Shown here piece after piece: positions 24,756 to 27,353 of a DNA stretch of 64,000 nt. Made by a program: the position numbers and the translations under genes. The notes beneath the pieces are model-generated. The model saw only the letters and a program-made list of their open reading frames with translations, did no database searches and was not told where the DNA came from. The stretch lies in contig BCKZ01000011.1 of NCBI GenBank assembly GCA_001600815.1, positions 641,224 through 705,223 on the forward strand. Direction: 5' to 3'. Source of the DNA: Alloascoidea hylecoeti. Its lineage: Eukaryota. How positions within the stretch are numbered: position 1 is the stretch's first letter; each line of letters opens with the position of its first letter.

Positions 24756-25693
24756 TTAGTGTAAATAAATAGAAATTCTAATTAGTTTAATACTTCGTGT
24801 TGGCCCCTTACGAAGTACATAGTCAATTGGGTTAAGGCTTCTAATATCAATTTTAGCCTGGTGATGACTTTTGCTGAGGAGATTCCATATGATGTGCTCA
24901 ATTGGATTCAAATCGGGAGAAAAAGGAAGCCACTCCAACAGCACCATCTTCTTTTCACAAAACCAATTCATTGTATTATGGATAAGCCTATTATCCAGGT
25001 TAAATAAGAAACCATCATAAATCTCATCAAGTCTTTTACAAAAGTTTAATGTAGGAGGAACATGTGGTGGTTCCTATCTTACTGCTATTATGAACATCAA
25101 CTACTCTTTACCGTGAATTGTGGTTTACTTTCTAAATTCCAGCGCATGCCATAAAGCTCATAGACTCAGATTTTCCTATATATTATAAATCTTTTTTTTA
25201 TGAAATACAACAACATCCCAAATGTCATGATAACACACTCCAACCTATATTTAGACAATACTATTCATTCGGTTCTTCTCATTTATATAAGATCATTCAC
25301 ATGCCGAAACTATTCAATTTTCATGATTTTACAGAAGGGTTTTTAGGCGGTTTTTGATATTGCCATATTTGATGCCTGCTCCTCAAACGTATCCAATAGG
25401 GGACGAGGAGAAGACACACATAGAGAGTTTTCACAACGTTAATTATTTAATTTACTGCTATTCAGTAAGTTCTGCAAGATTTCTTGTTCGAAGAGGTGTT
25501 ACAGTTTTTGCTATATTTATATGAATCGCACCATTGAAGGAACAATATTAACCTTTCTGCTTATTTCAGCAATTGAGAAGCCATTTTTAGTAATATTGCA
25601 AATTTTAATTTGCTTCTCTGGTTTTAATCACACTTTTTAGAATTAGAATTACGTGAAATCTCGCTTAACGAAAATTCTAGAAGTCATTATATG
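24756..25693 (-). mobile_element. Degenerate Tc1/mariner (DDE) DNA transposon, copy A
   Basis: Open stretch GFLFNLDNRLIH...WLPFSPDLNPIEHIIW (2nd Asp and Glu motifs) and upstream DIWDVVVF. Nucleotide similarity to 58960-59830 over ~900 bp. Confidence 0.85.
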
Positions 25694-25966: not shown

Positions 25967-26606
25967 AAAAAAATATATATATATATATACTATTAACGTT
26001 AGTTTTCAAGCTCAAATACTGTATAGATCCTTTATAAACAAATAGATATGGATTTTTTTTTTAATAATTATAAATATGATATTTGATAAACCTTTGCTGA
26101 TTTTAAGCGCTGCTCTAGACTCGTGTTTGATATACTTTTGCAACTGATTTCTTAATACTTTTATGTTTAATAGTTATAAATCTTATGATTTTTATTATTA
26201 TATTTAAGTTTTTTTATTAATATTGCTTAAATTAATTAAACCTTCCTATTTTTTTTATTTTTCGAATTCATAATTACCAATTTTAAAACTATATCAATTA
26301 TGAACGATATTATGTAAAATATTGTTAAATACTATTAGGCTTATTACTTTTTGAGTAATTTTACAATAGTTTATAGGATTACTTGTACTCATGACTTCAT
26401 GGATAGATTTAAATTTATTATTGAAAGTTGATACGTATCACATATAAGTTACATAACAATAAAAGAATTGAGAATCAAGTCCACATCATATAATGATTCA
26501 TATTTATAAAAATAAAAAATACAAATAAGTTAAGAATAAATAGGTTTGAATAGTAATAAGTTGTTTAATAAGTCCAGATATAAGTATTATCAATATTTTG
26601 ATTTAA

Positions 26607-26771
26607 TTAACATTTGCATTCCTTTTCACATTTGCAATTGTCAGCACAGGAACAATCCTTTGTGTTTGAACATTTGCATGGTGATGCACAAGAGCATGAT
26701 TTTGAAGCATTAGTTTGAGAACATTGACAGGTTTTTTCACAAGTGCAAGGAGAAGAACAAGAGCAGGCCAT
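26607..26771 (-). CDS. Metallothionein, 54 aa, 16 Cys in 8 CxC motifs
   Basis: Not in ORF track. MACSCSSPCTCEKTCQCSQTNASKSCSCASPCKCSNTKDCSCADNCKCEKECKC*; no aromatic residues or His; AAAAATG context; TATATAA ~100 nt upstream. Confidence 0.93.
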   Translation of the reverse strand: MACSCSSPCTCEKTCQCSQTNASKSCSCASPCKCSNTKDCSCADNCKCEKECKC

Positions 26772-26870
26772 TTTTGTAATAATTTTGATTTGAGAGTAAT
26801 TTAGTTATGATTTGATTTTTGTTTAATCGATGATTGATTATTTAAAAAAAAGGAGAGGAAATTTAACACT

Positions 26871-27074
26871 TATTATATAGTAAAAAGAGGAAGCACAAAT
26901 TTCTCAGATTTAAGTTTATATGGTGCTAAAAGTGGAGAGCACAATGCACGCTGTTATTTTAGAGCACAAACCTCTCAACTGCAAGATAAGATTTAAAAGA
27001 TTGAGAGCAATGTGCGCTGATGTTTAATTACTAACATTAGCATTTTAAGTAAAGCACAAACCTCTCAAGCACAA
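26871..27074 (-). promoter_or_regulatory. Metallothionein promoter: TATA box plus repeated AGCACAA(AYYTCTCA) elements and one TTACTAA (Yap-type site)
   Basis: + strand AGCACAAATTTCTCA 26892-26906; AGCACAAACCTCTCAA 26963-26978 and 27053-27068; AGCACAA 26938 and 27068; TTACTAA 27028-27034. Confidence 0.65.
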
Positions 27075-27344: not shown

Positions 27345-27353
27345 GTCACGTGA
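27345..27353 (+). promoter_or_regulatory. Cbf1-type E-box GTCACGTGA upstream of SEC9
   Basis: Exact RTCACGTG ~120 nt before the ATG. Similar sites lie at ~11900 (TRS85 upstream) and ~20072 (RAX2 upstream). Confidence 0.45.

Follow-up and report, generated by a model that had tools for sequence, protein, structure and literature searches.

Metallothioneins and Copper Homeostasis in Fungi

Metallothioneins are short peptides with 13-35 mol% cysteine (PMC12508003), and those of fungi are described as sequestering chiefly copper (PMC5812535). Among the described systems, the closest to the family treated here are MT-I and MT-II of Nakaseomyces (Candida) glabrata with the activator Amt1, and CUP1 and CRS5 of Saccharomyces cerevisiae with Ace1/Cup2, in which small cysteine-rich peptides are encoded by multicopy genes that apparently share one promoter element. 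Expansion of metallothionein copy number is known from yeasts (PMC5812535), and the consensus of the Ace1 site is given as HTHNNGCTGD (PMC6337107; PMC5234253). The copper regulatory domain of such factors consists of four cysteine pairs, and in Haa1-type proteins the domain is reported to be present while copper control is absent (PMC5234253). Copper pumps of the CrpA/Crp1 type have five N-terminal motifs, and a Crp1-type pump is described for C. albicans and a putative one for Y. lipolytica (PMC5447758). The metallothionein family of Alloascoidea hylecoeti described below resembles the C. glabrata and S. cerevisiae systems in general organization, but has no sequence match to them; most of its copies have diverged and lie scattered instead of forming tandem arrays of identical units, and its promoter element departs from HTHNNGCTGD. 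A literature search returned no published work on metallothioneins of Alloascoidea, and the Geotrichum and Saccharomycotina papers listed contained nothing on this family.

The Gene and Its Peptide

The window, i.e. the whole 64,000-nucleotide stretch of DNA that was analysed, carries on its minus strand a 54-aa open reading frame that runs from 26771 to 26607, with the ATG at 26771-26769 and the TAA at 26609-26607. This intronless, metallothionein-type CDS encodes the peptide MACSCSSPCTCEKTCQCSQTNASKSCSCASPCKCSNTKDCSCADNCKCEKECKC, in which cysteine makes up 16 of 54 residues (30%) and the spacings between successive cysteines (1,3,1,3,1,8,1,3,1,5,1,3,1,3,1) give eight CxC pairs, and which lacks Phe, Trp, Tyr and His altogether. 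A first-pass annotation of the same DNA had proposed a 54-aa frame with 16 cysteines, all in CxC pairs; reading of the minus strand bears this out, and the three cysteine blocks quoted at the time agree exactly with the peptide. The plus strand of 26607-26771 is closed, and the start codon stands in the context CAAAA-ATG-G. Since the frame contains no CTG codon, a CUG-recoded genetic code would leave the peptide unchanged. The CxC count is far above chance: of the 241 ATG-initiated ORFs of at least 30 aa in the 64-kb window, the runner-up among those of up to 120 aa has a single CxC against eight here, and 30 Markov-simulated 64-kb windows reached no more than one (26 windows) or two (4 windows). 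By sequence criteria this is a real, overlooked metallothionein gene, as its cysteine content lies within the 13-35 mol% range of the superfamily, its motifs are of the expected CxC/CC/CxxC kind (eight CxC) with neither aromatic residues nor His, and its cysteines are conserved under selection.

The gene lies between an RPS8 gene and a divergent gene that was named SEC9 from its homologs. Matches of the Sec9 neighbour are from Saccharomycotina, at 34-57% identity among the matches listed, with 38% identity to Geotrichum, and they mark the host as a budding yeast. In a tree built from the last 260 aa of 31 of the 120 listed matches, the window sequence forms a long branch of its own that falls outside the Nadsonia/Geotrichum/Sugiyamaella group, a kind of placement that is unsure; Geotrichum as the host was rejected on these two grounds. 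A Tc1/mariner-type transposase-like fragment was observed at 24756-24971 (-) of the window (DDE_3, E 0.0044, under the cut-off), 1.6 kb downstream of the metallothionein gene and inside a 2.8-kb gap poor in ORFs, parts of which match repeats on contig C3.

A Dispersed Family of Paralogs

All five scored candidates from a search of the organism's own genome are intact metallothionein-like ORFs, with 46-62 aa and 12-19 cysteines. They are dispersed over contigs C11 (the window gene), C3 (62 aa, 16 Cys), C4 (55 aa, 15 Cys), C21 (61 aa, 19 Cys) and C1 (46 aa, 12 Cys; 283186-283326 (+)), and their number, like that of the decayed copies, is a lower bound. With the C21 protein as query, the genome yielded no additional copy. 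The first-pass annotation had noted neither this multigene family nor the promoter element common to its members. A DNA pattern for CxC-x3-CxC matched the genome 2185 times and was swamped by microsatellites, and a tighter CxC pattern gave 52 matches, of which nine sites were inspected and yielded one 3′ fragment and one unrelated metallothionein-like ORF. The latter, at C14:59694-59885 (+), has a first exon of 64 codons with nine cysteines including two CC, followed by a canonical intron (GTATGT..TACTAAC..TAG). It has neither a Pfam match nor the family promoter element, and it adjoins a gene that we take to be catalase-like.

Decay within the family is seen on C3, where a copy at ~611.2-611.45 kb is frameshifted and has lost its start region but kept the promoter element, and where a 3′ fragment at ~598.7 kb holds the last cysteine block only. 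The region of C3 at ~595-622 kb consists of segmental repeats, in which an unclassified ORF of ~260-280 aa, lacking a significant Pfam match, is present several times and alternates with intact, pseudogene and fragment copies of the metallothionein gene. The C4, C1 and C3 copies align with the window gene over ~400-550 bp at 70-72% identity, and since promoter and 3′ UTR match too, they are DNA-level duplicates; the duplicated unit (3′ UTR, CDS and promoter) spans approximately 26500-27049 (-) of the window. The C21 copy is alignable with the window gene only over the CDS and the UTR edges. Retrocopying was considered as an origin and rejected, because the copies include promoter DNA upstream of the TATA element. 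The window gene belongs to a small birth-and-death family. The Mac1-like copper-fist gene (C1:278348-280201 (+)) is followed 3 kb downstream, in the same orientation, by the C1 paralog, a neighbourhood that may be due to chance or form a small copper cluster. Beside this copy stands an intact pectate lyase gene (C1:283889-284839 (-); PF00544, E 6e-44), pectate lyases being uncommon in budding yeasts.

Compared with C21, its most distant paralog, the window gene keeps 16 of 16 cysteines, seven of which switch between TGT and TGC, with pS 0.78 and pN 0.19 over 52 aligned codons. Retention of every cysteine at nearly saturated synonymous divergence shows the peptide to be under purifying selection, and this pair provides good evidence that the amino-acid sequence is of importance, with the qualification that the counts are small and that a single MAFFT alignment lies behind this and the other pairs. 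The comparison with C4 gives an omega of 0.21 over 49 codons with 14 of 15 cysteines kept, whereas constraint is not evident in those with C3 (omega 0.70; 13 of 16 cysteines kept) and C1 (omega 1.39 with three synonymous differences; 10 of 12 kept), two intact copies in which cysteines have been lost.

Homolog Searches and Classification

No homolog was found in a single-sequence search of the protein collection (29-95 aa), and an alignment search (25-109 aa) returned 200 candidates, none of them at E<=1. The PDB sequences held no homolog of the window peptide, and none of 145 pattern matches in metagenome contigs was confirmed. The single match among 1.84 billion representatives, a 1813-aa repeat protein that is presumably of the chitin-binding peritrophin type, was rejected as a composition artefact. 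Scores in the ESM Atlas were 0.77-0.86 with low recognition, and the feature scores against plant metallothioneins 0.77-0.81, both of which serve as leads only. Among Pfam families the best for the window peptide was PF02067 (Metallothio_5; E 0.89, 10.2 bits against a cut-off of 25), each of the four paralogs matched no family, and the plant metallothionein families PF01439 and PF02068 matched neither the window peptide nor the paralogs. The spacings of the Binz-Kagi fungal families 8-12 (N. crassa MT, C. glabrata MT1/MT2, Y. lipolytica MT3, Cup1) do not fit either: compared by eye with Table 1 of PMC4755600, none of the five consists of CxC-only, repeated CxC-x3-CxC-x3-CxC blocks. A lack of outside relatives is expected for such peptides, because CUP1 can hardly be aligned even with C. 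glabrata MT1 (bioRxiv 10.64898/2026.08.24.746667).

The gene had been called hidden, and indeed the peptide finds no candidate in the protein collection, itself included, while the neighbouring Sec9 is present there at 100%. The suggestion of a real metallothionein-type gene from a little-described lineage likewise holds, with no homolog detected beyond the organism's own genome. The searches of protein collections, PDB and metagenome contigs provisionally mark the family as lineage-specific; judged by sequence, it is an undescribed family of yeast metallothioneins, and a familiar kind of protein.

Cysteine-Block Architecture

The window peptide is built of three cysteine blocks joined by short linkers of 5-8 aa. 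Block 1 (aa 3-17; 26721-26765 (-)) has the pattern CxC-x3-CxC-x3-CxC, block 2 (aa 26-34; 26670-26696 (-)) reads CxC-x3-CxC and is shorter than its counterparts in C21, C1 and C4, and block 3 (aa 40-54; 26610-26654 (-)) repeats the pattern of block 1 and ends in CKC-stop, an end that recurs in each of the five intact copies and in the 3′ fragment. The C21 paralog, nearest in architecture, has three CxC-x3-CxC-x3-CxC blocks, so that the middle block of the window copy is one CxC shorter, and it also contains CCC and ten acidic residues. The family may thus derive from a three-block ancestor. The repeat unit of the first-pass annotation, CxC-x3-CxC, is better read from the three blocks of C21 as the six-cysteine CxC-x3-CxC-x3-CxC. 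The internal duplication proposed in that annotation did not find support at the DNA level: outside the cysteine skeleton, blocks 1 and 3 agree at 13 of 27 nt, where 9.9 would be expected (p=0.16), and the non-cysteine DNA identity of the three C21 block pairs is not significant (p=0.08-0.26). In the blocks, the second CxC is followed by a recurrent CE[K/N] motif, and duplication of the blocks is plausible. The all-CxC design is present as claimed, but its unusual status was overstated. Since plant metallothioneins share the spacing, and many fungal metallothioneins are described as having grown by internal duplication of modules (PMC4755600; PMC12508003), the architecture is not new in kind.

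The spacing of blocks 1 and 3 equals the plant domain CXCXXXCXCXXXCXC listed for AtMT3 and OsMTI-1b in Table 2 of PMC8836122, while the window peptide differs from plant metallothioneins in having three blocks and linkers of only 5-8 aa; convergence appears likelier than homology. Among yeasts, C. glabrata MT-II likewise ends in CKC-stop according to Table 1 of PMC4755600, but by eye MT-II and Y. lipolytica MT3 end in CxC-x2-CxC-x2-CxC in that table, in contrast to the x3 gaps of the window family. Cryptococcus CnMT1/2, Tremella TmMT and Agaricus AcMT1 also have repeated cysteine blocks that are mostly CxC, but as described their unit is the seven-cysteine Neurospora type with recognisable duplication, whereas the unit here has six cysteines and the DNA similarity of the blocks is not significant (PMC4755600; PMC12508003). 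Subfamily 7b copper metallothioneins of Tetrahymena resemble the window peptide in having essentially no CC or CCC and CKC-containing repeats, but they are given as CKCXXCKC units, belong to an unrelated lineage and have no sequence match to it (PMC1808422). C. albicans Crd2 and A. nidulans CrdA share with the window peptide CxC clusters, absence of His and richness in Ser and Lys, CrdA having 16 cysteines scattered over 109 aa as opposed to 16 within 54 aa (PMC5447758). The homolog searches (29-95 aa and 25-109 aa) brought up no relatives of Crd2/CrdA type, short cysteine-rich peptides being hard to detect. The N-terminal start of the window peptide may be similar to that of Crd2.

Promoter Elements

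Upstream of the TATA region, all five intact copies contain a 15-mer, TGAGARRTTTGTGCT, in the same orientation, and the window promoter has three copies of it, the most of any family member. These lie on the minus strand at 26892-26906 (TGAGAAATTTGTGCT, proximal, -135), 26963-26977 (TGAGAGGTTTGTGCT, middle, -206) and 27053-27067 (TGAGAGGTTTGTGCT, distal, -296), and a TATA-like TATATAA at 26873-26879 (-), ~100 bp upstream of the ATG, has TA-rich counterparts that align in the paralogs. Exact matches to the 15-mer number eight in the genome, all of them within the five metallothionein promoters, with none for the reversed control. As the five promoters were themselves the source of the pattern, finding it there is in part a circular result, and independent evidence comes from the footprint in C21, whose promoter shares an exact 17-mer with that of the window and 18 nt with that of C3, lengths that 0 of 500 shuffles reach in either case; its similarity to the C4 promoter (11 nt, reached by 57 of 500 shuffles) and the C1 promoter (12 nt, 8 of 500) is weak. 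A looser 13-mer has 18 genome matches, ten at metallothionein copies and eight elsewhere, against eight for the reversed control, and visual inspection of the neighbours of the eight outside the family revealed no metal gene. Full-text searches of the literature for 14-mers of the element returned no fungal paper by title.

A secondary element, ATGCACGCTG, with its GCTG core on the opposite strand, lies at 26944-26953 (+) and occurs in the C3 and C4 promoters as well, but is absent from those of C1 and C21; reading of the promoter placed a second copy, ATGTGCGCTG, at 27010-27019 (+). TTACTAA at 27028-27034 (no strand assigned), which we take to be a Yap1-type consensus, is found in the window promoter alone among the five. 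Between the metallothionein gene and SEC9, GTCACGTGA at 27345-27353 of the window (-582) contains TCACGTG, presumably a Cbf1-type site, and two TCACGTG adjoin the 15-mer of the C21 promoter.

The core of the 15-mer, TTTGTGCT, fits the Ace1 consensus at positions 1-8, but has C or T in place of G at the ninth, and the full consensus occurs within 700 bp in none of the five metallothionein promoters. TTTGCTC, which we take to be the Mac1 copper-starvation element, stands upstream of each of the four CTR copper-transporter loci (C5:855358, C16:423274, C3:679673 and C3:156645) and in 0 of 5 metallothionein promoters; the idea that the 15-mer is a Mac1 site was rejected on this ground. Sites of the Zap1-type zinc-response consensus (ZRE) are likewise absent from all five promoters, as are STRE and HSE. 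The CACAAA core of the 15-mer resembles Ndt80-family sites, but the gNCRCAAAW consensus of that type does not fit the elements. TGCACGC, which we assume to be the metazoan MRE core, occurs in three of the five promoters. Allowing up to two mismatches, the 15-mer is absent from the 3-kb loci of both SOD1 genes, the P1B ATPase, the three copper-fist genes and two genes that we take to be CCS1-like and ATX1-like, so that no wider copper regulon ties the 15-mer to copper.

Copper Machinery of the Genome

The genome contains three copper-fist genes, on C1, C12 and C24, of which we take the first to be Mac1-like and the second to be Ace1/Cup2/Haa1-like. The C1 protein has two C-terminal CxC-x3-CxC-x2-C-x2-H motifs, the regulatory region of the C12 protein (C12:250195-251565) has cysteines at 43, 46, 59, 61, 70, 72, 78 and 80, and that of the C24 protein has four cysteines only. 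The eight cysteines of the C12 factor match the four pairs described for the copper regulatory domain (PMC5234253), and the genome thus encodes an eight-cysteine copper-fist protein such as an Ace1/Amt1 copper regulon would require. Two Cu/Zn superoxide dismutase genes were also noted, at C22:18880-19290 and C2:519275-519685.

Twenty P-type ATPase matches were obtained, 18 of them with a readable phosphorylation-site context, in which one has CPC; the other two are unclassified. The only P1B-type ATPase found, on C22 from ~65.4 kb (+), has two GMTCxxC (HMA) domains, and no CxxC is present in the 1.4 kb upstream of it; with two domains against the five motifs of CrpA/Crp1, it looks like Ccc2. 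Its membrane region as query revealed no second P1B pump (five matches among eight candidates, the others being 25-30% identical). Neither a Crp1-type pump nor one of the Pca1 type, which exports Cd, was detected in the assembly, and because this consists of 136 contigs with unreadable stretches, the absence of such pumps remains unproven. Were a Crp1-type pump indeed missing, as it seems to be, the organism would be more likely to rely on metallothioneins.

Proposed Function and Alternatives

Copper is the likeliest metal of the window metallothionein, a choice in which we have reasonable though not high confidence, and the gene is probably that of a Cu-thionein induced via the 15-mer by the C12 factor. 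Under excess copper, this Ace1/Cup2-like copper-fist factor, the best candidate for the regulator, would take up Cu(I) and, through recognition of the three TGAGARRTTTGTGCT sites that precede the TATA element, activate transcription. The CxC blocks of the resulting peptide would enclose Cu(I)-thiolate clusters, around which it would fold, and in this way it would buffer the cytosolic metal. The copper-directed role of most fungal metallothioneins (PMC5812535), the copper-induced Tetrahymena metallothioneins that are described as built from CKC units without CC or CCC (PMC1808422), the fit of TTTGTGCT to positions 1-8 of the Ace1 site, the C12 factor, the missing ZRE in all five promoters and the failure to find a Crp1-type exporter argue indirectly for copper. 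Against it count that no promoter has a full Ace1 site, that no wider regulon emerged and that C21 contains a CCC, as well as the occurrence of the six-cysteine block in plant metallothioneins that are listed as Cd chelators (PMC8836122) and the high similarity reported for the Cd- and Cu-metallothionein paralogs of snails (PMC4730253). Cysteine spacing is insufficient to fix the metal preference.

An alternative, which we regard as unlikely but worth considering, is that the peptide prefers Zn/Cd or is non-specific and that some regulator outside the copper-fist class recognises the 15-mer. It would agree with the plant-type spacing of the blocks, with the CCC and ten acidic residues of C21 as the nearest architecture, with the absence of a canonical Ace1 site and of the 15-mer at SOD1, and with TGCACGC in three of five promoters, and the Pca1-type P1B pump is likewise not found. 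But ZREs are lacking in all five promoters, and the separate, CC-containing ORF on C14 could serve the divalent role. MTF-1 is not known from yeasts. Yeast metallothioneins are, moreover, mostly directed to copper in the account of PMC5812535. A role as a general stress or redox thiol buffer of the Crd2/CrdA kind, with a minor part in metal tolerance, is improbable: the TTACTAA of the window promoter and the TCACGTG at -582 and twice in C21 would suit it, but the Yap-type site is found in one promoter of five and STRE and HSE in none, and the 15-mer, being dedicated and repeated, suggests one specific inducer. CrdA provides a precedent for such a role, as it is described as CxC-rich, metal-induced and dispensable, its deletion in A. 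nidulans having no phenotype (PMC5447758). That the window copy is a recently silenced duplicate is very improbable, for although members of this birth-and-death family do decay (the frameshifted C3 copy, the C3 3′ fragment and the cysteine losses in C3 and C1), the window copy keeps 16 of 16 cysteines relative to C21 and has the most promoter elements (three), a TATA-like element that is intact and a favourable start-codon context.

Implications for the Family and Its Host

The proposed copper-induced Cu-thionein would fit biology already familiar from C. glabrata and S. cerevisiae, namely multicopy metallothioneins with a common promoter element, and the family is of a type that gene callers and profile libraries miss. 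Its natural variants, with 12-19 cysteines and two, partial or three blocks, suit tests of how block number relates to metal capacity, and the sharply defined candidate cis-element is directly testable and might serve as an inducible promoter. A further-reaching scenario, which we hold to be rather doubtful, is that the Crp1-type pump was lost and that dispersed, lineage-specific metallothioneins with plant-type six-cysteine blocks came under a new 15-bp element and an altered copper-fist protein or a new metal-sensing regulator. If pump loss and reliance on metallothioneins were true, they would represent an independent shift from export to sequestration, in parallel to Saccharomyces CUP1.
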